A DNA stretch of 48,103 nt from a virus (lineage: Duplodnaviria > Caudoviricetes). The notes beneath the pieces are model-generated. The model saw only the letters and a list, made by a program, of their open reading frames with translations. It ran no database searches and was not told the origin of the DNA. The position numbers were made by a program, and so were the translations under genes. Below, piece by piece: positions 13,386 through 33,416 of this stretch (position 1 is its first letter; each line of letters begins with the position of its first letter). The stretch covers positions 1 through 48,103 of IMG/VR virus record IMGVR_UViG_3300043756_000069. One strand, 5' to 3'.

Positions 13386-13396
13386 TTACTTACTAC

Positions 13397-17856: not shown

Positions 17857-17895
17857 AGGTTACAGCCCGTGTCAAATGTCCCTGATTTGCAGGGG
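17857..17895 (-). promoter_or_regulatory. Putative virion-operon promoter (leaderless)
   Basis: CCCCTGCAAAT...TTTGACA-N7-TAACCT; the -10 ends 7 nt before ATG 17849. Confidence 0.5.
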
Positions 17896-18653
17896 AAAAT
17901 GAGTTACTGTCCGTATCATGTGACAGTATGGGGATACAGTTACTTTTTCTGAAAAAATTTGTGTGTGTTACTACCGCAGTTCGAGCGAAAAAATTACTTT
18001 TTTCCTCGCGAGAACTCGGTAAAAGTGTAACTTTACTTTACTGTTTACAGTCAAAGTAAACAGTAAGTGCACCCGCCCAGGTGACGGATGAGTAACTGTT
18101 ACACACAGTACAGGGTACCTACACTGACCAGTCACCAAGTGTCACTGTCAGTGTCATCAGTGTTCACTCAATAGTACGTAGATAGTAAGTAGAATAGTAA
18201 GTACAGTATATCTATCTTTCTCCTGCAAGTGACAGTGAACTTTGAATAATCAGTTAGTCAGTAGGGTCTAAGGGAAAGGGAGACACCTGTCTATACTGTT
18301 ACACTTACTGTTACTGTTACTTACTGTAACTGTAACTGGAGAAAAGAATACACATACTTACTGACTATACTTACTATTATGTGTAATATAACAGTAAGTG
18401 AGCGGAGCGAAGTGTAACTGCTGAATCGAACACTACATACCTGTGCGATCAGAATAGTAAGTAAATAGTAAGTAGTTATGTGTATATCTCTGTCTGTCTG
18501 CCCGCCCCTTTGCGCCTACTTATTTACTTACTATTCAAAGTGCACTGTCATTTGCAGGGGAAAGGCCGAGTACACCGAACGTACTATTCGACTTACTATC
18601 TACGTACTATCTTCCCACGACGCCGCGTAGTAGATCGAGTGACTGTCAGTATT

Positions 18654-18692
18654 CCCCTGCAAATCGCGGCTATTTGACACGTCCTATAGGGT
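18654..18692 (+). promoter_or_regulatory. Putative promoter, same motif family
   Basis: CCCCTGCAAATC...TTTGACA-N7-TAGGGT upstream of ORF 18735. Confidence 0.45.
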
Positions 18693-19814: not shown

Positions 19815-19822
19815 ATCAAACA

Positions 19823-19963
19823 ATCTACTACACAAGCGTAGTACATACTACACAGGTTAGTTGAATGTTATTAGCAACCACTAACATAACCAACGTTCTG
19901 CGTAGTACGACAACCTATAGTTGTCCTGTCGAACGCTTTAGCTACTACGCTTGTGTAGTAGAT
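19823..19963. repeat. Perfect 21-bp inverted repeat
   Basis: ATCTACTACACAAGCGTAGTA (19823-19843) and its exact reverse complement (19943-19963). Confidence 0.9.
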
Positions 19964-20295
19964 CATCAGGAACTAGATACACCAGATTCCGGTGTATCTT
20001 TTGAAAACCTATACTTGACGATCTACTACGATGCGTAACTGTTCGCATCGTGAACATAATAGTTTGGTAAGGACATGTAACACTACGCAGCGTAGTGGTG
20101 TACTTAGTGCGAAGCACGAAGTGCTTCGCAGGATGCAGCACAGCACGAAAGCGAAGCTTTCCCTCATATCCTGGAAAGCGGTAGACCAGACAACGGAGTT
20201 GTCAGGTGTGACCAACGGAGTGAAGGTCAGTCACGGTGTGAGTAACAACCACCAGGTGACGGAACAGCAGTAACCAAGCTGACTGACCAACACAT

Positions 20296-20880
20296 TAGGA
20301 ACAGCCACCGAATCACACCACACTCTGTACCGTCAACTGAGAATCACTCAGTAGCAGATGCCACACCACGCGAGACTTCGGTAGGCACTAGGTGGACCAG
20401 ATACACCACGCACCTGCACACAAACGGTACGGTCTGGATTGGGAGCACCAGTCACCCAGACGTGGAATGTCGAATCAGGTGAAGTGCCAAGCGAGGTATC
20501 TGATAGCAACCTTGACGTTTACCATTGGTTCCGGTTGCTAGGGCAACATCGTTGATCCGCCACACAGTGAAATAAAACTACAGTGCGCGGGGAGTGAGTA
20601 GAGTCGCTTGGTACAGACACTTAGTGTCTAACCAATAGTTACAGTTTTCTGTCCCGTGATCTTCACTGGTTCGTTGTTCAGTGCGACACACGTTTGCGGG
20701 ACGGTGGTAACGAATACAAATTACTCCTCCTTGTCACTGTTACATGACAATGCTTGGATTCACACTGATGGCTGTCCTACTTTCGATGGTAGGCGTGAGA
20801 ACGAATGAGTCAGTGCCAAGTATGGGTTATCACGCGGTTCAAGTCCGTGGTAACGGTGTGGCGTTCATTCGCCCTATAGC
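20296..20880 (+). ncRNA. Large (~600 nt) structured non-coding RNA candidate
   Basis: No credible ORF; more than 10 helices, including long-range 20296-20307/20769-20779, 20484-20494/20604-20614, 20649-20659/20694-20704 and 20802-20808/20865-20871; T-arm-like CGCGG-TTCAAGT-CCGTG. Confidence 0.6.
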
Positions 20881-20909
20881 AGTACCACTCACACTAAGGA
20901 GTACACACT

Positions 20910-21215
20910 ATGGATGCTTCACGTAGAAGCAATGGTCCTGACCGTGGTAACAGTTACTCACGTCGCGCTCGCAAGCATCGCCTACTCACTGAGTTTGGCG
21001 ATGGTGAGACTTGCGAGTGCATTTACTGTGGCGCTGAGTTGAACTTCGACACGGTTACATCAGACCGCGTTATACCTGGTTCGAACGGTGGCACTTACCA
21101 CCGTGACAACCTGGTGCCAGCTTGCCAGTTCTGCAACCTGTCACGTGGTGACACACCAATCCTTGAATTCATGTTGAAGGTTGGTCCTGTCAAGCTGGCC
21201 GCTTCAATCGGCTAG
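20910..21215 (+). CDS. HNH endonuclease-fold protein (first His replaced by Arg)
   Basis: CxxC ... 'SDRVIPGSNGG...DNLVPACQFCN..RG'; AAGGAG RBS. Confidence 0.85.
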   Translation: MDASRRSNGPDRGNSYSRRARKHRLLTEFGDGETCECIYCGAELNFDTVTSDRVIPGSNGGTYHRDNLVPACQFCNLSRGDTPILEFMLKVGPVKLAASIG

Positions 21216-21296
21216 CACACACCAGTGCACTGATGAGTCAAATCGTCAGTGTGCTTTCCCCATAAAGGGGTAACTCACACTCAAGGAGTAATTGAA
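21216..21296 (+). repeat. Intergenic hairpin-RBS element copy 1
   Basis: Stem AGTGCACTGATGA / loop GTCAAA / TCGTCAGTGTGCT; CCCC-ATAAA-GGGG; TAACTCACACTCAAGGAGTAA. Confidence 0.9.
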
Positions 21297-21797
21297 ATGA
21301 AACTCACCATTCATGGTCCGAACCTGAACGATCAGTCAAAGGGTACGTTCCACGTGCACACTGCTGAGTGCCGTGACAATAAGAAAGAAGTCACGCACAA
21401 CGGTAGTGAGTTGCCGATCACTCACGAATTCAAGTCAGTGATTGACGTTGTGGAATACATTTACGGTGATCACATGGCCGAGCATCCGGCTGGTGACAAG
21501 TGGTCCACTCCTGATGTTTACGTCAGTGACTTCCACTTCGCACCGTGCACCAATGACCTTCCTTATGTCACTGATGAGGAAATGGTCATTGAGCAAAAGG
21601 TCACTGAGGATGACTTGACTGACTGTGATGGTTGTAACGGTTCTGGTATCTACTATGGCCGTGGCTACGTGGAGAATGGAGTGTTCAAGGGTTACACGAA
21701 CACTTGCTTCCGTTGTCAGGGTAAGGGTAAGCAGAATGCTGCTGACCGGAAGCGTAACAGCAACTATGACAAGTACCACCGTAGGGTAAGCATCTGA
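21297..21797 (+). CDS. Hypothetical protein with DnaJ-type CxxCxGxG zinc finger
   Basis: CDGCNGSG...CFRCQGKG; start reassigned to the ATG after the RBS. Confidence 0.75.
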   Translation: MKLTIHGPNLNDQSKGTFHVHTAECRDNKKEVTHNGSELPITHEFKSVIDVVEYIYGDHMAEHPAGDKWSTPDVYVSDFHFAPCTNDLPYVTDEEMVIEQKVTEDDLTDCDGCNGSGIYYGRGYVENGVFKGYTNTCFRCQGKGKQNAADRKRNSNYDKYHRRVSI

Positions 21798-21878
21798 CAC
21801 ACAGTGTGACCAGGTTTCAACCACCTGGTCATACTCTTCCCACAAGGGATAACTCACACTCACAAGGAGTAATCACAA
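21798..21878 (+). repeat. Hairpin-RBS element copy 2
   Basis: AGTGTGACCAGGT/TTCAACC/ACCTGGTCATACT; TCCC-ACAA-GGGA; conserved tail. Confidence 0.9.
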
Positions 21879-22169
21879 ATGACCAAATACACAGTTATGT
21901 TCAACGGTCATACGTTCACACGTAACAGCGAGCATGTCTACACACATGCAGCGTTCAATCCTAACCGTAGAGGTAACCGAGCATGGGTTAGCTTTCACGG
22001 TTCGGAGAAAGCTGCTAGGCGTGCTGCTGGTTCATTCGGGTTAGTTCATGCTGTCATCAGTGATAACCCAACTGCTAAGTGCATCGTGTGCAACGGTGAA
22101 CGGTATTACACTGAACAGCACGCGGACGGTTCACATCATCGCGTTGCATGTTGGAAGTGCAATCGGTAA
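21879..22169 (+). CDS. Hypothetical protein, C-terminal zinc ribbon
   Basis: RBS tail; CIVC...CWKC. Confidence 0.75.
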   Translation: MTKYTVMFNGHTFTRNSEHVYTHAAFNPNRRGNRAWVSFHGSEKAARRAAGSFGLVHAVISDNPTAKCIVCNGERYYTEQHADGSHHRVACWKCNR

Positions 22170-22247
22170 CACAGTGTGTGGTCGCTTCATCGCGGCCACA
22201 TACTCTCCCCAATTGGGGTAACTCACACTCACACAAGGAGTAAACAA
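22170..22247 (+). repeat. Hairpin-RBS element copy 3
   Basis: AGTGTGTGGTCGC/TTCATC/GCGGCCACATACT; CCCC-AATT-GGGG; tail. Confidence 0.9.
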
Positions 22248-22484
22248 ATGCAGGAATTGTCCTTCACTCAGCATGACCTTCATGGTCACAAGTATGTCAA
22301 CCCTACTGCTGTTGTCAGCATGAAGAACAAGAAGGAACTGCACTTGTGCGATAACGTCACTGAACTGTTTGACGCAGTTGCAGGTGACAAGAAGTTCGTT
22401 GCACATGAAGTGATCGGTAACGCACCTGTTCAGGTACTCATCAGTCCTGACGCAGTGGCTACCGTTCAGATTTACAAGCGGTAA
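22248..22484 (+). CDS. Hypothetical protein
   Basis: ATG after the AAGGAGTAA tail. Confidence 0.7.
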   Translation: MQELSFTQHDLHGHKYVNPTAVVSMKNKKELHLCDNVTELFDAVAGDKKFVAHEVIGNAPVQVLISPDAVATVQIYKR

Positions 22485-22569
22485 CAACACAGTGCGGTAA
22501 CGAGTCAGATCGTTACCGTGCACTGTCGGCAATCCTGCCGACTGACTCACACTACAAGGAGTAACACTC
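22485..22569 (+). repeat. Hairpin-RBS element copy 4
   Basis: AGTGCGGTAACGA/GTCAGA/TCGTTACCGTGC; GTCGGCA-ATCC-TGCCGAC; tail. Confidence 0.9.
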
Positions 22570-23262
22570 ATGTTGAAGTCACAAGTCAAGATCGGTGGCA
22601 AGTACACTGCTAAGGTGTCAAACAACCTGGTCACGGTGCGGATCGAAAGTGAACACCGTTACGGTGGTTGGACTGCCACTAACCTTTCCACGATGCGGAA
22701 GGTGCACATCAAGAGTGCACAGAAGCTACGTGGTGAAGTCACTGACAAGCCTAAGACCGAGCGTCCGCGCAATGGTAATGGTGATCCTTTGGCGAGTGAA
22801 CGTCAGATCAATTTCATCAATGACTTGCTTGATCAGCGAGTTGCTAGTGATGAAATGGTGAATGCGTATCACGTTGCTGTGTTGGAAGAGAGGTTCACCA
22901 TTGGTAACGCTGACTGGATGATCAAGCAGTTGAAGCGTAACCCGATGAAGAGTGACCACAGTGCACCTGAGATTGATCAGGTGAAACTCACCACTGACCG
23001 TATCACTCAGATCGGTCGCGATGGTGGTGCAGAAATGGTCACCGAGTCACTTGACAGGGACATTGTGTCCATGTCAGTTGAGGCAATGGTTACCGATATC
23101 ACTGGTGCCGATCCTGCTGACATGTCAACGTTTGAACTGAACACTTACGCCATTGCTTACCTGGATGGCGTGATGAACGGTGCACTGAAAGCAGTTGAAA
23201 CGCTACAAAAGCAGTTCAACGCACCACGCGAGAAGGTCACTACTCGCAAGAAGCAGCGGTAA
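22570..23262 (+). CDS. Hypothetical protein (SH3-like N-terminus, '[10 protein letters not shown]' module)
   Basis: 230 aa; RBS tail. Confidence 0.75.
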
Positions 23263-23340
23263 CACAGTGTGTGGGAGAGTCAAATCTCCCACATACTCTC
23301 CACCATAAGGTGGTAACTCACACTAACAAGGAGTAACGCA
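23263..23340 (+). repeat. Hairpin-RBS element copy 5
   Basis: AGTGTGTGGGAGA/GTCAAA/TCTCCCACATACT; CCACC-ATAA-GGTGG; tail. Confidence 0.9.
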
Positions 23341-23661
23341 ATGTCTGATGACAAGCCTATGACTGAACTTGAAGTGTTCAATCTGGCAGAGGAACTGTCA
23401 GGTGAACAGATTGATGACATGTGGTCAATGAATATCACTAAGTTCTCTGACAAGTTGTCAATGGCACTGTGGACCATTAGTGGTCACGGTTTCGATGATG
23501 ACAGTATCCCTAGTCCTAGTGATGACGGTTCATATGTTCTCAGGATCAATCGGTTCGTAGTCCTGTGTGACACACAGGGTTTCGTCAACACTCGTCCATA
23601 TGACAAGGTGCAACATGCACGGTGGGCGATGGATGATATCCGTCGCGATATGAACGAGTAA
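23341..23661 (+). CDS. Hypothetical protein
   Basis: RBS tail; 106 aa. Confidence 0.75.
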   Translation: MSDDKPMTELEVFNLAEELSGEQIDDMWSMNITKFSDKLSMALWTISGHGFDDDSIPSPSDDGSYVLRINRFVVLCDTQGFVNTRPYDKVQHARWAMDDIRRDMNE

Positions 23662-23740
23662 CACACAGCAGTGCACTGTTTCACCACGGTGCACTGTTCT
23701 CCGCGTATGCGGTAACTAACACTCACAAGGAGTAATCACA
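23662..23740 (+). repeat. Hairpin-RBS element copy 6
   Basis: AGCAGTGCACTGT/TTCACC/ACGGTGCACTGTT; CCGC-GTAT-GCGG; tail. Confidence 0.9.
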
Positions 23741-24022
23741 ATGAAGGTATTCATGCTTTGGTACGGTGGTAACGGTAACTATGCTGCACCTGAACTGGAT
23801 GACGTTGAAGAGTTTGACAGTATCAAAGATGCTGTTAGGTCATTCGATTCACGTGCAGATAGTTGGAACACTTACTATCCACTGGTTGAACGTGACACGT
23901 TCGACAATGGTGGTCAGTTCGCTCACCTGTTCTTCACCGATCCGCGTGAATCAGGTGAAGGTTACCCTGACAGGGTAATCGAGTATGGTCCACGCGGTGG
24001 CATTCACGTGAACCGTATGTAA
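23741..24022 (+). CDS. Hypothetical protein
   Basis: RBS tail; C-terminal 'YPDR....GPRGG'. Confidence 0.75.
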   Translation: MKVFMLWYGGNGNYAAPELDDVEEFDSIKDAVRSFDSRADSWNTYYPLVERDTFDNGGQFAHLFFTDPRESGEGYPDRVIEYGPRGGIHVNRM

Positions 24023-24103
24023 CACACAGTGCACCAGTGACTCATCATCGCTGGTGCATTCTCCGCCACATGGCGGTACTCACACTCACAAGGAGTAACA
24101 GCA
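24023..24103 (+). repeat. Hairpin-RBS element copy 7
   Basis: AGTGCACCAGTGA/CTCATCA/TCGCTGGTGCATT; CCGCC-ACAT-GGCGG; tail. Confidence 0.9.
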
Positions 24104-24259
24104 ATGACCATTGAACAGATGTGGGACAAACTCATTGAACTAGGTGTCAGTGAGCAGTGCCTACGTATTGTCACTAGCATCAACGGTTACAACGCGCAGA
24201 CAATGCGTGACGTACTGTATGCACACATTGGTTACAACGATTTCGACCAGGTGAACTAA
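24104..24259 (+). CDS. Small hypothetical protein (51 aa; below the ORF-track cutoff)
   Basis: MTIEQMWDKLIELGVSE...; RBS tail; TAATG overlap with the next gene. Confidence 0.7.
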   Translation: MTIEQMWDKLIELGVSEQCLRIVTSINGYNAQTMRDVLYAHIGYNDFDQVN

Positions 24260-24453
24260 TGCACGATGAAATGACAGATAGTGAAACTGCTGTCCTTCAC
24301 AACCTGCTTGCCAAGTATTGCACTCAGTATGCGATGCCTGGTGAGTGGTCAATCAGTGAACGTCAAGCATTCACTGCACTAGCTGGTGACTTGCGTGAAT
24401 CCATTATGGATGAGCGCATTACACTGGAACCATTTCCCAACCTAGGTTGCTGA
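24259..24453 (+). CDS. Small hypothetical protein
   Basis: Translationally coupled at both ends. Confidence 0.65.
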   Translation: MHDEMTDSETAVLHNLLAKYCTQYAMPGEWSISERQAFTALAGDLRESIMDERITLEPFPNLGC

Positions 24454-24620
24454 TGCCACACACCATAGGTCACTACGATGCACGTTTGGCAATGCTGAAC
24501 GTGCGTATCAGAAGACTCACCGATGAGCGTAAGCGAATCACTGGTGAGTTGAACGCTGCTAAGCGTGAACGTCGCGCCATCCTCGCAAAGCAGCAGCGCA
24601 GTAAAGCAGCAAAGAAGTAA
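24453..24620 (+). CDS. Small basic coiled-coil protein (55 aa)
   Basis: TGATG overlap; MPHTIGHYDARL...KAAKK*; stop precedes copy 8. Confidence 0.65.
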   Translation: MPHTIGHYDARLAMLNVRIRRLTDERKRITGELNAAKRERRAILAKQQRSKAAKK

Positions 24621-24694
24621 CACAGTGTGATCGGGTTTCATCACCTGGTCACACTCTCCGCGTAAGCGGTAACTCACACTAACAAGGAGTAACA
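24621..24694 (+). repeat. Hairpin-RBS element copy 8
   Basis: AGTGTGATCGGGT/TTCATC/ACCTGGTCACACT; CCGC-GTAA-GCGG; tail. Confidence 0.9.
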
Positions 24695-25006
24695 ATGTCA
24701 GACACACTCAAGATCATCACTAACAACGTTCCACGTGACATTCTGTGGGACTTGCCAGAGAGTGACCGTAAAGAGTTTGACTACATCAAGTGGTCAGATG
24801 TTGACAACGGTATCGAGTCAGTGGCTTTTGTGAACTACAAAGGTCAGTTGTATGACTTGAATGACACGGAAGGTGTCTTCCCTGCTGACCGTAGCTGGTT
24901 CTATGTCAGTGACTCATTCTTCTCTGGTGTACTGTTCAGGTATCCAGCGGATGAATTCGGCACGTATGACACTGAACAGATCATTTGCGGAAGGTACTAC
25001 GCATAA
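24695..25006 (+). CDS. Hypothetical protein
   Basis: RBS tail; 103 aa. Confidence 0.75.
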   Translation: MSDTLKIITNNVPRDILWDLPESDRKEFDYIKWSDVDNGIESVAFVNYKGQLYDLNDTEGVFPADRSWFYVSDSFFSGVLFRYPADEFGTYDTEQIICGRYYA

Positions 25007-25185
25007 TGCCATTCTCACAATCACACTCACTGATCAGCTTTGTCATTCGTGACAGTGATGATCACATCATTGAAACACGTGACAACATGTCACGCACGGA
25101 TGCTGTTGAATTCATGCGCTCATTCTTTCGTAGCATGGAAGAAGATGAGTACATAATTCAGGTGAACAAAAAGATCAAGTGGTAA
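25006..25185 (+). CDS. Small hypothetical protein
   Basis: TAATG coupling (MPFSQSH...). Confidence 0.6.
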   Translation: MPFSQSHSLISFVIRDSDDHIIETRDNMSRTDAVEFMRSFFRSMEEDEYIIQVNKKIKW

Positions 25186-25263
25186 CACAGTGTGGTGACG
25201 AGTCAAATCGTCACCATACTCTGCACCATACGGTGCTGATTCACACTCACAAGGAGTAACACT
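25186..25263 (+). repeat. Hairpin-RBS element copy 9
   Basis: AGTGTGGTGACGA/GTCAAA/TCGTCACCATACT; GCACC-ATAC-GGTGC; tail. Confidence 0.9.
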
Positions 25264-25527
25264 ATGCCACGTGCTGCTAAGCAGCAATACCGCATATACA
25301 TTCATGGTCACTCTTTCCGTCATGTGTTCGGTACACCTGACGCTAAGGAAGTGACTGCATGGATGGTGAAACTGTACAAAGGTCAGCAACCTGGTTTCCC
25401 TAGGGTTGGACCTTATGACTGGTCAGTTGAGAAACTTGATCAGTCTGATGGTAACTGGTATGCGATTGACGCACTGTCAAAACAAGCGTTGATCGCTGCT
25501 ATTCACAAAGGTGTCACTAATGCCTAG
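25264..25527 (+). CDS. Hypothetical protein
   Basis: RBS tail. Confidence 0.7.
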   Translation: MPRAAKQQYRIYIHGHSFRHVFGTPDAKEVTAWMVKLYKGQQPGFPRVGPYDWSVEKLDQSDGNWYAIDALSKQALIAAIHKGVTNA

Positions 25528-25867
25528 GCTACAACGTTCACTGCACCGTGGTTGGTCTGACCGTAAACCGTTCATCAGACGTGTCCGTTGGTATCAGAAT
25601 GAAAACATGAGTGCACTTGCACAAGTGAGAAGTTCTATGCCATACAGGTTGAATTTCCAAGATGAATTCATGGAGATAAACCGATTCTTCACTACACATG
25701 AAACGACACTACACTGGTTTGAACGATTCATTGCACTAAGTGATGAGCGTCCATTCAAGCCTGTACCTGGAACGTACCCACCACAACCAAGTGGTGAGAA
25801 TGTTAGTGACTCACCAGTGCGGCGGATCGAAGAAGAGATTGAAGCTGCACAAGCAGAAGGTAAGTAG
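25520..25867 (+). CDS. Hypothetical protein
   Basis: Overlaps the upstream gene end; stop precedes copy 10. Confidence 0.65.
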   Translation: MPRLQRSLHRGWSDRKPFIRRVRWYQNENMSALAQVRSSMPYRLNFQDEFMEINRFFTTHETTLHWFERFIALSDERPFKPVPGTYPPQPSGENVSDSPVRRIEEEIEAAQAEGK

Positions 25868-25946
25868 TAACAGCACAGCGATGTGTCACAACGTCGCTGT
25901 GTTCTTCCGTCACCCGACGGATAACTCACACTAACAAGGAGTAACT
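25868..25946 (+). repeat. Hairpin-RBS element copy 10
   Basis: AGCACAGCGATGT/GTCACA/ACGTCGCTGTGTT; TCCGTC-ACCC-GACGGA; tail. Confidence 0.9.
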
Positions 25947-26303
25947 ATGTCTCGTCCTAAGTCAATGACTAACGTGCAACTGGCAGAGTGGTTGGACCAA
26001 CTCGGTTCACACACTGTGTACGATGCAGTGATGTTGACTGACACACTACCTGCTGACATTGCAGCAATAGTGCCGACACAAACCACTGCACAAGTCAGAC
26101 GTGCAATGGAGAACCGTGGACTAGGTGGTGACATTACCACTAAGGATACGATTCTGTTCACTGGTTACATTGCGGCAATGGCTATTTCACGTGCACGTTG
26201 TGGTAGTGACGCATGTCAGGAAGCATACGGTCAGATAGCTGGTCGTGGTTCCATTCACCGTGCAGCGATTGCACTACTCAGAAGGACACCTGACAATGCA
26301 TGA
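25947..26303 (+). CDS. Hypothetical protein
   Basis: RBS tail. Confidence 0.7.
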   Translation: MSRPKSMTNVQLAEWLDQLGSHTVYDAVMLTDTLPADIAAIVPTQTTAQVRRAMENRGLGGDITTKDTILFTGYIAAMAISRARCGSDACQEAYGQIAGRGSIHRAAIALLRRTPDNA

Positions 26304-26502
26304 CGAAATGAACAAGCATGAAGCGATTGAACGTATGAAGACACTTCACGCACAGCTTACTGCTGCACGTGAAAGTGCACTCATCTGTTCAGCGTTACTA
26401 GCTGGTGTGGATCAACGTTCTACCTGGTTGCGCGATGACATAGCGCAGTCACTTGAAGTTCTCGATTCACAGGTGCGTGGAAACATTCACTCCATGCAGT
26501 GA
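26296..26502 (+). CDS. Small hypothetical protein
   Basis: AAGGA upstream; MHDEMNKHE... Confidence 0.6.
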   Translation: MHDEMNKHEAIERMKTLHAQLTAARESALICSALLAGVDQRSTWLRDDIAQSLEVLDSQVRGNIHSMQ

Positions 26503-26577
26503 CACAGTGCAGTGCAGAGTCAAATCTGCACTGTGCTTTATTACCCTCAGATCAAACACTCACAAGGAGTAACACTA
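26503..26577 (+). repeat. Hairpin-RBS element copy 11 (no second hairpin)
   Basis: AGTGCAGTGCAGA/GTCAAA/TCTGCACTGTGCT; CACTCACAAGGAGTAA. Confidence 0.9.
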
Positions 26578-27156
26578 ATGATAGGTTGCACCAACGTCTA
26601 TCACAACGAAGTTGACTGTCGCGTAGCAGGATTGTCATATGCACTGTGGTGCAGTGCATGTCGGATGACACTGACGGATATCTACGTTGAAAGCATCAAA
26701 GAGTCACATGCTCGCATTCAAGCGAGTATCGATGATGAAACTGTCATTGACTTACTGACCACTCCAATGTTCCCGTTGCAGTATGACGTGAAGGATCACA
26801 ACAATGAACGTGGTGACTATTACGAAGAATGTGACGTGTGTCATCGTTCAATGTTTGACGTTCAAACTGTTCACCTAGGTGACTCTCGTCCTTGGACATG
26901 GGACACCATTGGTGTATGTGGTGCGTGTCGTTTCACTGAGGCAATCAGACAAGCTGCTGAGAATGCACAGTATGAACGGTGGGCGCGTGAAGAACAAGAG
27001 TGGCTAGACAACGGTGGTCAGGAATTGATTGACAGTGAACCGTATGTGTGGCCGGATGAACGTGACACTTACCGTAGCAATCCAGACGGTACAGTTACAC
27101 TCATCACAGAAAGCGGTCAGGAACACACTTACGATCCTGACCAGTTGGATCAGTAA
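26578..27156 (+). CDS. Hypothetical protein with CxxC motifs
   Basis: Start reassigned after the RBS tail; CSAC, CDVC, CGAC. Confidence 0.7.
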   Translation: MIGCTNVYHNEVDCRVAGLSYALWCSACRMTLTDIYVESIKESHARIQASIDDETVIDLLTTPMFPLQYDVKDHNNERGDYYEECDVCHRSMFDVQTVHLGDSRPWTWDTIGVCGACRFTEAIRQAAENAQYERWAREEQEWLDNGGQELIDSEPYVWPDERDTYRSNPDGTVTLITESGQEHTYDPDQLDQ

Positions 27157-27251
27157 CACCAAGTGCAGCAGCGAGTCACATCGTTGCTGTACTCTGCGCC
27201 AAGGGTAACCGCGCAGAAGAGTTACCCACACTCACAAGGAGTAGTGACACT
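27157..27251 (+). repeat. Hairpin-RBS element copy 12 (second hairpin replaced by overlapping helices)
   Basis: AGTGCAGCAGCGA/GTCACA/TCGTTGCTGTACT; CTGCGC..GGGTAAC.GCGCAG..GTTACCC; tail. Confidence 0.9.
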
Positions 27252-27776
27252 ATGTCACAGTTCAACACTAAAATCACTGAGGCAATTGAAGCGTTGGACG
27301 CTGAGATTGCTGACGTGGAGCAAGAGTTGGAACAGTTGAAAGCAACTCGTGCCAACCTTGAAACAGTGTTGGTTGAAGGTGACGATGAGACACCTAAGAA
27401 GTCACAACGTAGCAAGGTGTCAACCATCAAGGTCAGTGACAAGCCACAACGCAGTGGTCGTGCTGACAGTAAGCGTGGTGAGATTATCTCCATGCTTGAG
27501 GATGGTGTAAAGCCATCTATCATTGCTGAGCAGATGGACGTTACACCTAACTATGTGTACACCATCCGCAAAGCGGAAGCTATTGCACAGAGTGACACAC
27601 CACGCCGTGGTGGTCGCCGCGCATCGCGTAACAGTGATAGCGGTAACGGTGCACGTAAGGTCACCAAGCGTCAGCAGATTGCTGACATGCTTGCAGACAA
27701 AATGTCAGTGAAGGATATCGCTGACGAGTTGGGTATCTCACCTTCCTACGTTTACAACGTGAAGGGTAGTCTCTAG
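27252..27776 (+). CDS. Tandem helix-turn-helix DNA-binding protein with N-terminal coiled coil
   Basis: Two HTH repeats: 'GVKPSIIAEQMDVTPNYVYTIR' and 'KMSVKDIADELGISPSYVYNVK'. Confidence 0.8.
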   Translation: MSQFNTKITEAIEALDAEIADVEQELEQLKATRANLETVLVEGDDETPKKSQRSKVSTIKVSDKPQRSGRADSKRGEIISMLEDGVKPSIIAEQMDVTPNYVYTIRKAEAIAQSDTPRRGGRRASRNSDSGNGARKVTKRQQIADMLADKMSVKDIADELGISPSYVYNVKGSL

Positions 27777-27863
27777 TACACAGTCAGTGTGTGAGTCGAA
27801 TCGCACACTGACTCTATTCCTCTCATAGTTCACACTACAAACCACTCACAAGGAGTAACCCGT
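27777..27863 (+). repeat. Hairpin-RBS element copy 13
   Basis: AGTCAGTGTGTGA/GTCGAA/TCGCACACTGACT; CACTCACAAGGAGTAA. Confidence 0.9.
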
Positions 27864-28109
27864 ATGGCGGATGCACCTGCATCTTCTACACCACGTCCGC
27901 GCCGTTCACGCAGTCGTGCACCAGTGAAGACTGGTGTCACTGTTGTGTACCTTCAAGAGCGTGAAAGTAAAAACTTCATGCGCTTCGAAGAGGAAGTGGA
28001 AAACGGTAAAGACCCGATTGTCGGCAGTTACTTTTACATCGGTAAGCCACTGTTTGACAGGTTGGGTAAGCCTGATGCTATCGAAGTGCAGATAAAGCCA
28101 ACCGAGTAA
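27864..28109 (+). CDS. Hypothetical protein
   Basis: RBS tail. Confidence 0.7.
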   Translation: MADAPASSTPRPRRSRSRAPVKTGVTVVYLQERESKNFMRFEEEVENGKDPIVGSYFYIGKPLFDRLGKPDAIEVQIKPTE

Positions 28110-28186
28110 CACACAGTGCAGTGGCGTGTCACAACGTCACTGCACTTTCCCACTAAGGGATAACTCACACTAATAAGGAGTAACTA
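28110..28186 (+). repeat. Hairpin-RBS element copy 14
   Basis: AGTGCAGTGGCGT/GTCACA/ACGTCACTGCACT; TCCC-ACTAA-GGGA; tail. Confidence 0.9.
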
Positions 28187-28366
28187 ATGGGTGCCGATGT
28201 AACTGGAACACGATTCAACGCTCATGGTCGTAAGGTCGAAGATGTAAACATCTTTGTCAATCGCGTTGGTGACAAAGTGTTCCTTCAAATTGAAGGTAAA
28301 GGTCCAGCCAAGATGTATGACATACCTTTGACCGAGTGGCAGAAGATGGTAAACGGTACCAAGTAA
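28187..28366 (+). CDS. Small hypothetical protein (59 aa; not in the ORF track)
   Basis: MGADVTGTRFNAHGRKVEDV...; fills the interval between copies 14 and 15 exactly. Confidence 0.7.
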   Translation: MGADVTGTRFNAHGRKVEDVNIFVNRVGDKVFLQIEGKGPAKMYDIPLTEWQKMVNGTK

Positions 28367-28431
28367 CACAGTGTGGTGACGTGTCACAACGTCACTACAC
28401 TCTGTAGTAAACACACAACACAAGGAGTAAC
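28367..28431 (+). repeat. Hairpin-RBS element copy 15
   Basis: AGTGTGGTGACGT/GTCACA/ACGTCACTACACT; ACACAAGGAGTAA. Confidence 0.9.
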
Positions 28432-28911
28432 ATGGTTGAAGCTGTACCTGATCCACCTATTGATCCTATGAACTTGAAAGTTCAGTATGGAACAAGGTCA
28501 CTTGGACAGAAGGGTTACATTCTCCAAGACATGCAGTCACTAACTGTTGTCTTTCAGAGTGACTTCAAAGGTGACGTGATCAAGGAAGCACAACAGCGTA
28601 AGAGTTTCACACCTGCCAATGGCAGTGAGGAAACTTACGCACGTCAGTTAGCTGGTGCTGCTGGTGAACAACCAATGACTGAAATGATGACAGTGCGTAG
28701 TGCACTAGCTGGTGCTGTCGCAATGTCACTTGGTGATTACCTCAACTCCGAACAGGTTGAAGGTACTCCACTTGAACAGTATGAGTTTCAGGTGAGTCCC
28801 AATGGTGACACTGCTGTTGTGGTGATGGTTCGTCACACGTCAGATGACAGATGGATTTACACATTCACTGCAAACATCAGTGGTTCGGTCATCCGCACAC
28901 CTGCACAGTGA
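28432..28911 (+). CDS. Hypothetical protein
   Basis: RBS tail; 159 aa. Confidence 0.75.
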   Translation: MVEAVPDPPIDPMNLKVQYGTRSLGQKGYILQDMQSLTVVFQSDFKGDVIKEAQQRKSFTPANGSEETYARQLAGAAGEQPMTEMMTVRSALAGAVAMSLGDYLNSEQVEGTPLEQYEFQVSPNGDTAVVVMVRHTSDDRWIYTFTANISGSVIRTPAQ

Positions 28912-29012
28912 CACTTGGTCAGTGGTTCGTTGACAACCTAGCAATCATCGCTTTACTTGTGGCACTGCCATTTCTTATTGGATGGTTGCTAGACAAGTGG
29001 ATACACAAGTAA
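28908..29012 (+). CDS. Small single-TM peptide (34 aa)
   Basis: GTGA overlap; MTLGQWFVDNLAIIALLVALPFLIGWLLDKWIHK*; stop abuts copy 16. Confidence 0.55.
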   Translation: MTLGQWFVDNLAIIALLVALPFLIGWLLDKWIHK

Positions 29013-29090
29013 CATCAGCACAGCAGTGTGTCATTACGCTGCTGTGTTCTCCGCCAACCGGCGGTAACTCACACTACAAGGAGTAAGCAC
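29013..29090 (+). repeat. Hairpin-RBS element copy 16
   Basis: AGCACAGCAGTGT/GTCATT/ACGCTGCTGTGTT; CCGCC-AACC-GGCGG; tail. Confidence 0.9.
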
Positions 29091-29477
29091 ATGCCACGCA
29101 CACAGTCAAAGCTTGATCGTATGGCACAGATTGAGTCAGTGTTGAATGACGCTGACCTACTGACCGATTACCTTCAAGAGATTACTGACCACATCGAACA
29201 GCTAACTACTTTGCAGGAAGCTGTTCAGGAAGTCACTGAGTATGTCACTGAGGGAATGAACACTGTGTCAGAAGCACAGGGTTACCATGAAGATCGACAG
29301 TGGGAAGATCGTGACAGTCAACTGTCAGAACTTCAAGACAACCTGGAACGTATCGAAAGTGCACTCAACACTATCGGTGGTGTTGAACTGAGTGAACTTC
29401 GTTCAGTGGATGATGAAGTGAACACTATCCATGACAAGGTGGCAGAAGCACAGGAAGAGTTAGGTCACCTGATCTGA
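29091..29477 (+). CDS. Hypothetical coiled-coil protein
   Basis: Start reassigned after the RBS (MPRTQSK...). Confidence 0.7.
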   Translation: MPRTQSKLDRMAQIESVLNDADLLTDYLQEITDHIEQLTTLQEAVQEVTEYVTEGMNTVSEAQGYHEDRQWEDRDSQLSELQDNLERIESALNTIGGVELSELRSVDDEVNTIHDKVAEAQEELGHLI

Positions 29478-29548
29478 CACACAACACAGTGGCGAGTCAC
29501 ATCGCTGCTGTGTTCTTACCCTACTAACACACTCACACAAGGAGTAAG
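29478..29548 (+). repeat. Hairpin-RBS element copy 17
   Basis: AACACAGTGGCGA/GTCACA/TCGCTGCTGTGTT; CACTCACACAAGGAGTAA. Confidence 0.9.
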
Positions 29549-29803
29549 ATGGCAAAGGAACATTACGTCACTGAGGATCGCATCATGGTCTATGAAGGTG
29601 ACTTGGTGTATGACTACTACAGCATGGAACCTGTCATCATTGGTAGACCATGTGGTGGTGGTTGGTTTGACACACTGTCAATCACTGACGCCAACAAGCG
29701 TTCACGTGCAGGTATGTTGAACGGTCAGCGTATCTGTTCAATTGAATACGCTGCACTGAAAGACTTTGATGGTGCAAAGGATGCACTGAACAAGGTCACC
29801 TAA
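29549..29803 (+). CDS. Hypothetical protein
   Basis: RBS tail. Confidence 0.7.
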   Translation: MAKEHYVTEDRIMVYEGDLVYDYYSMEPVIIGRPCGGGWFDTLSITDANKRSRAGMLNGQRICSIEYAALKDFDGAKDALNKVT

Positions 29804-30018
29804 TGCCAAAGCAAGGTTACGATTACAGGTTACGTTGTCTTATTGACGGTGATGCACTTGAGGCTTACCAAGGAAAGTCAGGTGACTATTTCGGCTGGTA
29901 TGAAGGTGAAGTGGTGACACTTGAAGTGAAACACAAACATCACACACTGAACATCAAGCTGGACGAAAAAGGTAACGTGTCCCTGCAACGTCACATCAAT
30001 CCTCACGTAATAACGTAA
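29803..30018 (+). CDS. Hypothetical protein
   Basis: TAATG coupling. Confidence 0.65.
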   Translation: MPKQGYDYRLRCLIDGDALEAYQGKSGDYFGWYEGEVVTLEVKHKHHTLNIKLDEKGNVSLQRHINPHVIT

Positions 30019-30095
30019 CGTCAACCAGTGAGTGAGTCACTTCGCTCACTGGTTCTGTCAGCAATAAAGCTGACTACTCACAAGGAGTAACACTT
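30019..30095 (+). repeat. Hairpin-RBS element copy 18
   Basis: AACCAGTGAGTGA/GTCACT/TCGCTCACTGGTT; GTCAGC-AATAAA-GCTGAC; CTCACAAGGAGTAA. Confidence 0.9.
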
Positions 30096-30284
30096 ATGCC
30101 CGGTTACTATCGGTTGCGTGCAACTGATACAGGCTTTCAACTGTCATGGGTAGGTAACACCATGTCAATAAACATCGACGATGACGGAAGTCACGGTCCA
30201 ATCGCTGAGTTGTATCAGCGAGTGGATCAAGTGTTCCATGACAGTAGGAAGGAAGCAGAAAGGTCACACAGTGAAACCGAGTGA
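30096..30284 (+). CDS. Small hypothetical protein
   Basis: RBS tail. Confidence 0.65.
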   Translation: MPGYYRLRATDTGFQLSWVGNTMSINIDDDGSHGPIAELYQRVDQVFHDSRKEAERSHSETE

Positions 30285-30501
30285 AAAGAATCCAGCCATT
30301 GACGCAACACTGACAGCAATGTTTGGTGTTGACAGACAAGCGTCAATCAAAGAGAACGTGTGCATTGATCCGCCAATTGGTTGTGGTCAACCAATCAGTA
30401 ACTTTGCACTGTGGTCTGAGATTGAACAGTCAGAGTACAAGATCAGTGGTCTGTGTCAATCATGTCAGCGTGAAATATTCAAGGCTAACTATGACACGTA
30501 G
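30271..30501 (+). CDS. Small zinc-finger-like protein
   Basis: GTG after GAAAGG; 'C....GCG...EYKISGLCQSCQ'. Confidence 0.65.
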   Translation: MKPSEKNPAIDATLTAMFGVDRQASIKENVCIDPPIGCGQPISNFALWSEIEQSEYKISGLCQSCQREIFKANYDT

Positions 30502-30937
30502 ATTCCCTAGGTTCGAATTCCCTGACTTCAATGATCGCGATGCAGTCATCAGGTTTCAACTTGACAGACTGGATCATTGGGAAGCTGCACACAACAAACG
30601 TATTGAACTAACCATGAAGGACCGTATCACTGTTGACAGTAACGGTGTTGCGACAGTCACATACACAGTTGATGAGTATGAAGAACTGTACAAGTTGACT
30701 AACCTCGCAATGAAGATACGGTTACTGTGGGAAAGCTGTTACTCACGTGATCACTCACTTGAGTTGCTGTATACGTTCGAATACGTTGGCGTGGTGATTG
30801 ACTATCGCCTAGGTCTACGTAAGACACTACGGTCAAGTAACAGTCAGTCAATACCTAAGCTGGCACGTGCAGTGATACGTGACCAGGTTGACGGTATCAT
30901 TGCAGCACTGGATGATATCGAGACACTGACTCAGTAA
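30491..30937 (+). CDS. Hypothetical protein
   Basis: Start reassigned to MTRRFPRF; stop precedes copy 19. Confidence 0.65.
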   Translation: MTRRFPRFEFPDFNDRDAVIRFQLDRLDHWEAAHNKRIELTMKDRITVDSNGVATVTYTVDEYEELYKLTNLAMKIRLLWESCYSRDHSLELLYTFEYVGVVIDYRLGLRKTLRSSNSQSIPKLARAVIRDQVDGIIAALDDIETLTQ

Positions 30938-31014
30938 CACTTGCAGTGTGTGAGTCACATCGCACACTGCAACTCCTGCACAAGCAGGTACTCACACTCA
31001 ACACAAGGAGTAGC
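30938..31014 (+). repeat. Hairpin-RBS element copy 19
   Basis: TTGCAGTGTGTGA/GTCACA/TCGCACACTGCAA; CCTGC-ACAA-GCAGG; tail. Confidence 0.9.
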
Positions 31015-31356
31015 ATGGCAGACAGACATTTCCCTGTCTATGTAGTGAGGTTACCCAACAATGAAGGTTGCGGTCACCAACACAACACTGATGAACAAGC
31101 ATGGAACTGTGCGAGTAACATTGCACATCGCCGCAAGTCACTAGCATGGATACAAGTAGTGAAGATATCCATGCGTGCACACGGTCCGCGTGAAATAATC
31201 ATCGGTCAGGTTGCACAGTACACAACATGTACTGAGTGCAAAGGTCTAGTGCTGACACTGGATAACGGTACTGAACGTGGACACTATGAAACGTGTTCAC
31301 ACTTCACTGCTGGTGATCCTCGTCCTGGTCGTGGAAAGGTGACACTAAGTGACTGA
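31015..31356 (+). CDS. Hypothetical protein (Cys/His motifs)
   Basis: Start after the RBS; CGHQH, CTEC. Confidence 0.7.
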   Translation: MADRHFPVYVVRLPNNEGCGHQHNTDEQAWNCASNIAHRRKSLAWIQVVKISMRAHGPREIIIGQVAQYTTCTECKGLVLTLDNGTERGHYETCSHFTAGDPRPGRGKVTLSD

Positions 31357-31564
31357 TCTAATTCTTGAACAGATGGCATACGAACTAAAGTGTGCACTTG
31401 AAGCGAGAGGATTGGACCCTAGTGATCCACCTAGTCAGTCACAACCACCTGCTGATGCTGCGTTTGCTGAGTATCAGAAACGTGGTGGCACACAGTGCAC
31501 TGACGCACAGTCACTTGCACTGGCACTAGTTGCAGAAGTGGTGAGTCAATCGAAACAAGATTGA
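31349..31564 (+). CDS. Hypothetical protein
   Basis: Overlap-coupled. Confidence 0.6.
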   Translation: MTDLILEQMAYELKCALEARGLDPSDPPSQSQPPADAAFAEYQKRGGTQCTDAQSLALALVAEVVSQSKQD

Positions 31565-31824
31565 AGGAACCGATTGTGCGACAGGAAGACCTAACACCTG
31601 ACACACCTAGAACGTGGTCACAGTTACTAGCCACGTTCAACGTTGGTGATGATGCACGTTGGCGATGTGTACCTAAGCTGGAAGGTGACGGTATACAGTC
31701 AGTCAACATGGCACGTGTGCACGATAAGCAGTTACGTGTGCGTGACAGTAAACGTCACAAGCAACACATTCACCATCAACAGTTACCAGTTGACGAACCG
31801 GAAGAAGTTGAGCGGAGAATCTAG
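31561..31824 (+). CDS. Hypothetical protein
   Basis: Overlap-coupled. Confidence 0.5.
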   Translation: MKEPIVRQEDLTPDTPRTWSQLLATFNVGDDARWRCVPKLEGDGIQSVNMARVHDKQLRVRDSKRHKQHIHHQQLPVDEPEEVERRI

Positions 31825-31991
31825 TGGACATACTCTTGTTCATGGATCACCTGTTCGATGAAGGTGTCAACGTATACATTGGTGACTGTACTCGTCCTGG
31901 TCCAAAGGTGCAACTTGCACCAGAGGATGAGGAAGAACTAGACAAGGTAGTCACTGACATAATCAAACGTCACTTCAAGCGAGACAACTAA
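31824..31991 (+). CDS. Small hypothetical protein (55 aa)
   Basis: GTG overlapping the upstream TAG; TAATG into the next gene. Confidence 0.5.
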   Translation: MDILLFMDHLFDEGVNVYIGDCTRPGPKVQLAPEDEEELDKVVTDIIKRHFKRDN

Positions 31992-32191
31992 TGCACCTAG
32001 CACCAACCAAGCAACTGCACGTGATGACTGCTGGTAAGAAGAAAGCAGTAGTCGAATACGTGGAAGGTGAAACATTCACCAAGTATCGTGTGGTCACCTG
32101 GTATGACGGTCACGTTGTCATGCCTTACTACTGCACCACTGAGGAACGTGCACTAGAACGTGCACGTCAGTACATGCGGAACGCTAGCTAA
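31991..32191 (+). CDS. Hypothetical protein
   Basis: Coupled ORF. Confidence 0.6.
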   Translation: MHLAPTKQLHVMTAGKKKAVVEYVEGETFTKYRVVTWYDGHVVMPYYCTTEERALERARQYMRNAS

Positions 32192-32193
32192 CC

Positions 32194-32370
32194 ATGACAA
32201 GTAGATACCAAGCAAAGCGTAACCTTCTACAGAACGCACTCAGTTACCTAGCAAGTGACATGTACACAGAAGATCATCCAGAGAATCCAAACGGCGATGC
32301 CGAAATGGAAATGAAGGATGAACTGTTACTAGACGCTGCAAGGAAGTTCGTAGAAGCACACACTAGCTAA
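32194..32370 (+). CDS. Small hypothetical protein (58 aa)
   Basis: MTSRYQAKRNLLQNAL...; stop abuts copy 20. Confidence 0.6.
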   Translation: MTSRYQAKRNLLQNALSYLASDMYTEDHPENPNGDAEMEMKDELLLDAARKFVEAHTS

Positions 32371-32449
32371 CACATTGCAGTGTGCGAGTCACATCGTGCA
32401 CTGCAACTATCACTCTCATAACTAACACTCACAACAAGGAGTAATACTC
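32371..32449 (+). repeat. Hairpin-RBS element copy 20
   Basis: TTGCAGTGTGCGA/GTCACA/TCGTGCACTGCAA; TAACTAACACTCACAACAAGGAGTAA. Confidence 0.9.
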
Positions 32450-33112
32450 ATGGAGTATGAGTTTCCACACGAACTAGTGGCGGAGACTGACACACGTGCT
32501 GGCCGCATGTTCAGTGCTGGTGACGTGCGTGTGACAGTTACACAACGTGGTGAACACATTACTATCAGGTTCAAGGCATTACGGGATAACCGTGATGGTG
32601 AAGGTCGTAACTGGTTACGTGTGCCACTGAATGAAGCGTCACATGTGTTCATGGAAGTACCTAACAGCAGTGGTGAATGGCCGGACAAGATCGGCGTGTT
32701 CTATCCACGTACTGGTAAGTTCTTCCAGGTTGACACTGCTGATCCTGAACGTGTCAAAGCTGCAACTCTCGCTGCACGTTGGTTGAATGAAGGTGCACAA
32801 CGTGCAGAGAAGATTGGTGGTTACAGGTTGCAGGAAGAGTCACACTGTGGCGTGTGCGGTCGCACACTGACTGATCCTGAGTCTATTGACTTAGGTATCG
32901 GTCCTGAATGTAACCGACGGCAAACTGGTTCACAACACCAAGTGAAGCAACGTCAGAAGTCAGCATTGAAGTCATACAGTGACAGACACATGACTGCTGA
33001 TGACGCCATCGAAATCATTATGGACATGCCAGATGATGAAGTGGAACGTGTCAGAGAAGAGTTGAACATGTGGCACTCTGCTGACAGTCAATCAACACTG
33101 TTCGACAGATGA
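32450..33112 (+). CDS. DUF6011-domain protein
   Basis: 'CGVCGRTLTDPESIDLGIGPEC'. Confidence 0.8.
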   Translation: MEYEFPHELVAETDTRAGRMFSAGDVRVTVTQRGEHITIRFKALRDNRDGEGRNWLRVPLNEASHVFMEVPNSSGEWPDKIGVFYPRTGKFFQVDTADPERVKAATLAARWLNEGAQRAEKIGGYRLQEESHCGVCGRTLTDPESIDLGIGPECNRRQTGSQHQVKQRQKSALKSYSDRHMTADDAIEIIMDMPDDEVERVREELNMWHSADSQSTLFDR

Positions 33113-33333
33113 AGAGGCAACACATCATCATCAGTAAGAGGCAAGCGAAAGCGATAGCTGACACACTTGCCAGTGCACCTGAGAGTGCACTGTACTACGT
33201 TGAACAGACAGTGGATGACATTGGTGGTACTCACCTGTACTTGCATGACCGTACACTCGCTGATCCTTGTGTACACATAGCGAGGTATTCAGGTAGCGTA
33301 TCACCACGAATGGACAGTGACAGACAGGAGTAA
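33109..33333 (+). CDS. Hypothetical protein
   Basis: ATGA overlap; last gene before the terminator. Confidence 0.65.
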   Translation: MKRQHIIISKRQAKAIADTLASAPESALYYVEQTVDDIGGTHLYLHDRTLADPCVHIARYSGSVSPRMDSDRQE

Positions 33334-33337
33334 TAGT

Positions 33338-33378
33338 AAACCCCTGCCGATCATCGCGATCGGCAGGGGTTTCTTTTT
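33338..33378 (+). terminator. Intrinsic terminator between convergent blocks (possibly bidirectional)
   Basis: AAACCCCTGCCGATC-ATCGC-GATCGGCAGGGGTTT followed by CTTTTT. Confidence 0.85.
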
Positions 33379-33416
33379 GTGACTACTTGTTCGGTAGGTA
33401 CTGAACAAACATACTG

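Follow-up and report, generated by a model that had tools for sequence, protein, structure and literature searches.

What does a phage do with the same structured element repeated twenty times in front of small genes, all of them read in one direction? This question is raised by a tailed phage in IMG/VR virus record IMGVR_UViG_3300043756_000069, whose entire 48,103-base sequence was analyzed and is called the window here. From position 21224 to position 32449, on the + strand, a hairpin joined to a ribosome-binding site (RBS) recurs between genes. A sequence-only reading of the window had described 20 such elements, each with a 13-base-pair (bp) stem and a loop of 6 to 7 nucleotides (nt), among about 35 genes; all 20 were recovered, together with 35 open reading frames (ORFs). 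The hairpin is real, selected, and uncatalogued, and the element is a variant among the structured intergenic signals of phage polycistrons.

Structure and selection of the repeated element

The 20 hairpins lie between 21224 and 32406. In order, each element comprises a stop codon, 3 to 8 A/C-rich nt, the 13-bp stem and loop of hairpin 1, a pyrimidine-T dinucleotide (Y-T, or Y-U in RNA), usually a second hairpin, an A/C-rich tail, the sequence AAGGAGTA, which is invariant in 20/20 elements, and, just after it, ATG. The stem is 13 bp in every copy, with an A.A at the base of copy 22491 as the sole mismatch, and the loop has 6 nt in 18 copies and 7 nt in two. Hairpin 2 is present in 15 of the 20 elements, so that the earlier "usually" holds for these and fails for five, and it starts exactly 2 nt past hairpin 1 in 13 of the 15. 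The elements had also been said to begin right at the stop codon with a short spacer; all of them do follow a stop, and the hairpin itself starts 3 to 8 nt further on. In 30 dinucleotide shuffles of the region, a mean of 0.07 motif hairpins was found against the 20 observed, although such counts are not probabilities because the copies are related. Hairpin 1 is predicted to form in its sequence context with a mean probability of 0.96, and the mean hairpin energy is -20 kcal/mol.

The first element (21224..21296) shows the full layout, with hairpin 1 at 21224-21255, the YU, hairpin 2, the A/C tail, AAGGAG, and the ATG at 21297. Hairpin 2 is likewise found in the elements at 21803..21878 (hairpin 1 at 21803-21835, with a 7-nt loop), 22173..22247 (22173-22204), 22491..22569 (22491-22522, with the basal A.A), 23266..23340 (23266-23297, the top-scoring copy), 23667..23740 (23667-23698), 24028..24103 (24028-24060, with a 7-nt loop), 24624..24694 (24624-24655), 25189..25263 (25189-25220), and 25872..25946 (25872-25903). 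The eleventh element (26506..26577; hairpin 1 at 26506-26537) lacks it, the twelfth (27162..27251; 27162-27193) has a longer, structured second part, and the thirteenth (27782..27863; 27782-27813) has no stable hairpin 2. Further along, hairpin 2 is present at 28115..28186 (28115-28146), 29017..29090 (29017-29048), 30023..30095 (30023-30054), and 30941..31014 (30941-30972). It is not stable in the shortest copy, at 28370..28431 (28370-28401), and is absent from those at 29483..29548 (29483-29514) and 32375..32449 (32375-32406), the last of which matches its orthologue in a related contig, L053, at 31/32 nt. All of these elements are on the + strand.

The compensatory stem changes proposed earlier were borne out. 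Across the 20 copies, 99.6% of the 260 stem cells are paired versus 63.7% in shuffles, two-sided changes occur at 12 of the 13 stem pairs, and the covariation score is 1.055 versus 0.273 in shuffles. Pairing drops to 20 to 50% in slid registers, and RNAalifold returned the same helix from 28 copies. Outside Watson-Crick pairing, the stems hold 33 G.T, one A.A, and no A.C, in agreement with the wobble bias described in the sequence-only reading; with RNA and with DNA parameters alike, the + strand gives the better fold in 20/20 copies. The fold and the G.T bias therefore fix the strand and not the molecule, which may be RNA or + strand single-stranded DNA (ssDNA).

Mean stem identity between copies is 47%. 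Similarity falls with distance along the array (Mantel rho -0.22, p 0.01), a pattern that local duplication or conversion would produce. Against this variable background, the G-C at pair 12, the loop U-C-purine (U-C-R), and the Y-U after the stem are invariant in all 29 unbulged copies from the window and its relatives, and pair 1 is never G-C or C-G in these copies. When three bulged copies from the related contig L062 are added, the G, U, and C remain common to 32/32. The first and last loop bases covary, with G...A/U/G set against Y...C (Fisher p 2e-4, for copies that are not independent), and this therefore points to a shaped loop. As a caveat, GTCA/TGAC is the most enriched tetramer of the window genome (2.85x); in the five relatives that keep the loop, the GTCA enrichment is 1.3-1.7x in four and 2.4x in L053.

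The conserved tail of about 23 nt that had been described is a loose consensus outside AAGGAGTA. The longest exact run common to two copies has a median of 12 nt and a maximum of 26, with exact shared runs of at least 20 nt in 9 of 190 copy pairs. The RBS tail also precedes genes at 20896+, 37973-, and 36690- without any hairpin. The suggested control of translation, taken as insulation of the RBS, was not supported by folding predictions, since the predicted unpairing from the Shine-Dalgarno (SD) sequence to the ATG hardly differs whether the hairpins are present (0.48) or absent (0.50). The 8 nt past the stem contain 1 to 4 T, and no element was called as a terminator on the + strand. In Rfam 15, there was no match at the gathering threshold; the 10 weak matches at E <=10 were all far below threshold, and none was relevant. 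The covariation, the G.T-only wobble, the fixed geometry, the conservation in relatives, and the absence of an Rfam or terminator explanation support the view that the element is a structured signal on one strand and is under selection.

The placement of the elements is equally regular. The block at 21297-33333 on the + strand (21297..33333) contains 35 small ORFs, mostly without a family match by ORF calling and domain scans, and is split by the elements into 20 units of 1 to 6 genes. Nineteen internal gaps measure 65-95 nt, and every one of them is occupied by an element; the 15 junctions that are tight (-14 to +11 nt) have none. The first gene of the block encodes an HNH endonuclease (20910-21215, + strand, in region 20880..21215) and is preceded by an A/C tail and AAGGAG with no 13-bp hairpin. 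Domain scans also identified a helix-turn-helix (HTH) protein gene (27252-27776, + strand) and a DUF6011 protein gene (32450-33112, + strand), and family scans of the window proteins found no function for most array genes. At the block end, a canonical intrinsic terminator with 15 pairs and a T run (33338..33382, + strand) is unlike the 20 elements. From its gene size and position, the block might be an early operon that serves host takeover.

Two observations concern an array gene and the DNA before the array. The protein encoded at 21297-21797 and proteins P0050-P0097 are modular and contain a 91-amino-acid (aa) metal-ligand-rich domain, which in relatives stands alone, carries a Zn-finger tail (as in the window protein), or is fused to HARE-HTH (PF05066). 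On the 5' side of the array, about 1.1 kb at 19815-20900 contains no convincing gene and includes a perfect 21-nt inverted repeat (19823-19843 / 19943-19963); this stretch is a possible site of the operon promoter or of a small RNA.

Distribution in relatives and genome setting

Contigs of relatives were reached through homologues of the DUF6011 gene, and 99 loci, most of them distant DUF6011 carriers, were searched with hairpin model R1. Twelve further full copies were found in five of these loci, all on metagenomic contigs (one in L053, two in L054, one in L055, one in L057, and seven in L062), and L062 has one additional degenerate copy. The hairpin before DUF6011 is identical at 31 of 32 positions between the window and L053, whereas the flanking genes are 70-73% identical and keep 48 of 75 four-fold sites, which therefore indicates purifying selection on the hairpin. 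Hairpin 2 starts 2-3 nt past hairpin 1 in L062, L054, and L057. In L062, a single bulge near the stem base is tolerated, and two copies do not come straight after a stop.

A comparison of gene content was used to examine the proposal that the elements make the genes swappable modules, which would require turnover at element boundaries. By tblastn, L062 and the window have seven genes in common, in partly different order and with one moved, and two whole element-plus-gene units of the window are missing between orthologues that are adjacent in L062. These differences agree with the proposal, but two of the orthologues in L062 lack an element of their own, and L053 lacks three window genes inside one unit, at element-free junctions. 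A further weakness of the proposal is that the stems diverge, which leaves shorter stretches of homology between copies. In low-depth contigs of relatives from four runs, element tails occur before other genes with mixed hairpins, and these joints are not assignable to one copy because they have 20-40 matching letters. The run with the best coverage of the window is a soil metagenome that may be the source; for this run, 15 joints were shown out of 23, and none was a clean tail-to-tail deletion or circle, in contigs that drop rare variants. Element-gene units thus do turn over, but the turnover data do not as such support a dedicated cassette mechanism. Where genes are shuffled at the shared tails, this would be a side effect of the recombination that is ordinary in phages.

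Outside these relatives, the element was not encountered as an array. Scans of IMG/VR DNA with three patterns matched 0, 51, and 70 loci, with single matches each and no array, and the model matches at these loci are tail-only by construction. Hairpin model R2 had no match in 99 other loci, which included 35 kb of Streptomyces phage LazerLemon. Model R1 found nothing in two complete virus records; in five further genomes or records it had a single match, confined to the tail. A literature search, whose coverage stopped short of supplements (where motif tables may stand) and most subscription papers, did not return a description of the motif.

Some relatives show junctions of a different kind. 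In L300, a GC-rich phage with homologues of the window genes at 21297 and 22570, 13 junctions at 9750-13650 consist of a stop, a short GC hairpin, YTYGATCA, an A/C tail, GGAGGA, and ATG, and have no 13-bp hairpin. This suggests that the stop-hairpin-RBS architecture recurs and that the present motif is specific to one phage group. In L298, the non-coding leader of the orthologous array carries three exact copies of a 16-nt direct repeat (9535-9860), and the orthologues of gene 21297 and the HNH gene are in swapped order. In L055, L057, and L060, queuosine-pathway-like genes lie 3' of DUF6011 beside a recombination module; from their motifs we take them to be 6-pyruvoyltetrahydropterin synthase-like, radical SAM, and GTP cyclohydrolase-like genes.

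The rest of the window is that of a tailed phage. Its left part holds portal, capsid, protease, sheath-like, and terminase genes, and its right part holds genes for a primase-polymerase, an SNF2 helicase, a PD-(D/E)XK nuclease, an AAA_24 ATPase, and DNA polymerase A. The record is probably incomplete because tape-measure and baseplate genes were not recognized among the window proteins. The array DNA at 21200-29100 and two array proteins had no match in cultured phages, the polymerase matches listed in cultured phages were at 25-28%, and the best named matches of the terminase were Streptomyces phages at about 41%. By these searches, the soil phage appears to have no close cultured relative, and an actinobacterial host is weakly hinted at. 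An AT-rich, gene-free stretch at 17860-18690 contains nested inverted repeats with arms of 37, 40, and 70 nt and carries TTGACA, pointing outward, on both outer arms; it is a candidate origin, genome end, or pair of divergent promoters. The portal protein (9330-13385, - strand, 1351 aa) is fused C-terminally to an ADP-ribosyltransferase-like domain, and DNA polymerase A (44567-47008, + strand) has a uracil-DNA-glycosylase-like N-terminal domain. In the whole window, the words GTCA/TGAC, TCAC, CACT, and CAGT are enriched 2.5-2.9x, and GGGC/GCCC, GGGG, GGCC, and CCGG are depleted to 0.1-0.3x. The depletion of the GC words possibly reflects restriction avoidance.

Proposed processing signal and alternative explanations

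The reading that we tentatively favor, at a little less than an even chance, is that the elements are loop-read, length-measured mRNA processing or stability signals, likely cut between the two hairpins. Both helix ends are conserved, the middle is free, the length is fixed, and hairpin 2 lies exactly 2 nt on in 13 of 15 copies, which together is the anatomy of a loop-reading ruler. On this reading, the strand that folds would be RNA, and a single transcript would run through the whole block. A factor would dock on the U-C-purine loop of hairpin 1 and measure 13 base pairs down the stem, and the cut would likely fall at or beside the Y-U linker. The upstream unit would then keep a protective 3' hairpin, and the downstream unit would keep a 5' hairpin ahead of its strong RBS. 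Such cut-and-protect logic is known from T7 early RNA and Rnt1p (PMC3867540). The elements have no promoter consensus or U-tract, and one true terminator stands at the block end, which also speaks for this reading. The reader is somewhat more likely to be a host enzyme than a phage one because distant relatives show isolated copies. In a bolder version, which we consider unlikely, tRNA-elbow-like or custom hexaloop hairpins would let one enzyme chop a 12-kb transcript into 20 protected messages and would make captured genes instantly expressible as modules. That enzyme would be an off-label tRNA-processing nuclease, or else a nuclease of phage or host origin that follows an Rnt1p- or Cas6-like logic.

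Several results weigh against the processing signal. No nuclease or binder that could act as the reader was identified among the window proteins scanned, in a record that is probably incomplete. The model of the DUF6011 protein (predicted local distance difference test score, pLDDT, 86) had no structural match above Z 4.8. The model of the protein encoded at 27864-28109 had a best Z of 4.9 and no viral match at E <=0.001, and the Atlas search returned only viral clusters without a name, or nothing. No RNA data set with the window sequence was found among the runs listed. The G.T bias is compatible with RNA and + strand ssDNA alike, and hairpin 2 is missing from 5 of the 20 elements. In the close relative L298, the single junction that can be seen has no element, and in L300 homologous genes are joined by the other motif; the element is therefore dispensable in the wider group. 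No family of hairpins of this kind was found in 61 sampled genomes of the possible host class (that of a Solirubrobacterales metagenome-assembled genome), with 106 candidates scored per genome, and this counts because a host-read signal might have shown such a family there. These genomes gave four matches in three genomes, all perfect palindromes; the loop is the reverse complement of GUGA in three, and those checked sit after gene ends like terminators. The proximal and distal box rules of Escherichia coli RNase III mostly fail as well; whichever of four registers is taken, no more than 11 of 29 copies obey the two proximal rules, and at the register of the U.G peak (9/29) the canonical U-A neighbor occurs in 0/29. 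These are the rules of the E. coli enzyme, from which the host enzyme may differ. A canonical tRNA T-loop was also rejected, with 7 nt in 3/29 copies, U54 in 4/29, and A58 in 8/29.

The same features might be explained by binding that is not followed by a cut. Each element could be bound by RNA polymerase or by a protein of phage or host, so that antitermination is reloaded at every gap or the mRNA is shielded. The invariant loop and closing pair would suit this, as would two stems on a fixed 2-nt linker and a block of 12 kb in which 20 gaps are untranslated and no internal promoter was found. The put RNA of phage HK022 is a two-hairpin analogue. A possible binder is the 27864-28109 protein, whose gene is also present in L062 and whose predicted structure combines an Arg-rich tail with a small beta domain. 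However, its fold match is weak (best Z 4.9, with OB-like rows at 3.2-4.0), look-alikes occur in unrelated phages, and binding alone would need neither the strict 13-bp length nor the invariant far-end U. We regard binding without a cut as unlikely. The elements might instead be plain weak terminators, pause sites, or insulators without a dedicated reader, in which the loop is kept by descent and the GTCA bias. Strong hairpins (mean -20 kcal/mol) 3-8 nt after stops would be expected of terminators, GTCA is the top genome tetramer, neighboring copies are more alike, and U-less and tandem terminators occur in Actinobacteria. Yet the 8 nt past the stem hold only 1-4 T, the phage uses a canonical terminator elsewhere, and insulators should bring a gain in RBS accessibility, which was not predicted. 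Moreover, stems at 47% identity keep the loop, the length, and the Y-U fixed, also in relatives with little GTCA bias, and we judge this explanation to be distinctly improbable.

Explanations at the DNA level account for less of the structure. Recombination handles that make genes swappable, as in the shuffling at promoter early stem-loops (PeSLs) or through mini-circles, would fit the seven partly reordered genes common to L062 and the window, the two whole units absent between adjacent L062 orthologues, and the element tails before other genes in low-depth contigs of relatives. The phage also has an AAA_24 ATPase, a PD-(D/E)XK nuclease, and a DUF669 protein, which presumably form a single-strand annealing module. 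Recombination would not, however, select for pairing; the homology between copies is short (median 12 nt), the three-gene difference in L053 lies inside a unit, and a clean tail-to-tail deletion or circle was seen at none of the 15 joints shown. Such handles are therefore very improbable as the main function. A promoter-terminator cassette, in which the loop is the -10 box of an extracytoplasmic function (ECF)-type or phage sigma factor ahead of a short leader with hairpin 2, is highly unlikely. Its loop, GTCAAA or GTCACA, resembles what we take to be a sigmaE-type -10 box. PeSL stem-loops, too, often overlap a -10 box (PMC2839356), but ECF sigma factors need near-consensus boxes 16-18 bp apart (bioRxiv 2020.06.23.168245), and no conserved -35 box stands at that distance: the -36 to -30 zone carries at most 0.5 bit, and its scattered AAC is explained by TAA plus C. 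Sigma-70-like sites on the + strand overlap none of the elements, and no sigma factor was above the cut-off among the window proteins scanned. Finally, ssDNA hairpins for a site-specific recombinase or HUH nickase, similar to attC sites or repetitive extragenic palindromic (REP) sequences, would agree with the cassette-like layout and with the better folding of the + strand as DNA too. The single orientation, the lack of extrahelical bases in window copies, the absence of RYYYAAC / GTTRRRY cores (0/20), and the absence of an integrase or HUH protein among 72 proteins scanned make them extremely unlikely.

The element is an uncatalogued, putative RNA motif whose natural mutagenesis is unusually clean. 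The 32 copies define the loop U-C-R, the pair-12 G-C, the 13-bp length, and the Y-U as the positions that matter, and a reader would therefore be directly findable by an in vitro assay. If the elements are programmable cut-and-protect signals, they would explain how long arrays of captured small genes are expressed in such phages and would provide a compact part for splitting synthetic operons. They would also extend T7-style polycistron processing to a loop-reading rule that was not found for bacterial RNase III in the cited papers. If they are only weak terminators or insulators, they would still make a good new Rfam-type family of modest interest.

Comparison with known systems

As the sequence-only reading had supposed, the known systems compared here do not match the elements, which share features only in part with T7 RNase III signals, PeSLs, and the start-associated sequences (SAS) and extended start-associated sequences (ESAS) of mycobacteriophages. 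The T7 polycistronic early precursor has five RNase III signals, and single-strand RNase III cuts in T7 RNA leave 3' stabilizing hairpins (PMC3867540). The minimal T7 R1.1-type RNase III substrate has an 11-bp helix above the cut (PMC1540722); by our own derivation from the numbering in that source, this would become 13 bp with the overhang pairs, which fits the hairpin length. Like the T7 signals, the elements place hairpins in the intergenic gaps of a phage polycistron, where each follows a stop and precedes an RBS; their 13-bp stem, present in all long gaps, satisfies the 11-bp minimum, and U.G is enriched at pair 11 of the hairpin (9/29). They are unlike these signals in having 20 copies, a second hairpin 2 nt on, and no lower stem, the probability of pairing across the stem base being at most 0.12 in 18/20. 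In addition, the loop is their most conserved part (U-C-R in 29/29), whereas E. coli RNase III has no loop-sequence requirement (PMC1540722), and the B. subtilis enzyme has similar preferences (bioRxiv 2023.03.12.532304).

The PeSLs of the T4-type phages RB49 and phi1 have the same order of stop, stem-loop with G-T pairs, SD, and start as all 20 elements, and PeSL cassettes likewise repeat before orphan genes in a variable region (PMC2839356). However, PeSLs combine consensus sigma-70 promoters with variably placed terminating stem-loops (PMC2839356), whereas the elements have no promoter, a fixed geometry, and a conserved loop. Sigma-70-like sites numbered 13 in the 17.8-34 kb region versus 20.4 in shuffles, and none was in an element on the + strand. 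In cluster K mycobacteriophages, the SAS is an AGGAG repeat just before the ATG of non-structural genes, and an inverted repeat frequently lies upstream of it (PMC3203893); the elements are similar in both respects. The ESAS arms are conserved in sequence, variably spaced, and judged not to support RNA pairing (PMC3203893); unlike them, the element arms are 47% identical, covary, flank a fixed loop, and follow another consensus. Two further classes were rejected. Having only 1-4 T among the 8 nt that follow the stem, and no terminator call on the + strand, the elements are not canonical intrinsic terminators. Nor do they fit integron attC sites, since the RYYYAAC and GTTRRRY cores are absent from 20/20, and no integron integrase was found among the 72 window proteins scanned in this probably incomplete record.

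The elements also resemble substrates that are read at a loop. All 29 unbulged copies are similar to the acceptor-T arm of tRNA in their pair-12 G-C and loop U-C-R, which presumably echo G53-C61 and U55-C56-R57. CCA follows the stem in 0/29 copies, and no tRNA gene was called. RNase P and RNase Z measure from the tRNA elbow on the acceptor-T stack (PMC4810234), and Rnt1p cuts 14-16 bp from the loop (PMC3867540). Rnt1p differs in that it is eukaryotic and reads NGNN tetraloops, whereas the element loop has 6 nt inside a further pair. Altogether, the elements would resemble the substrates of Rnt1p, RNase P, and RNase Z in combining recognition at a loop with action at a set helical distance (PMC3867540, PMC4810234).

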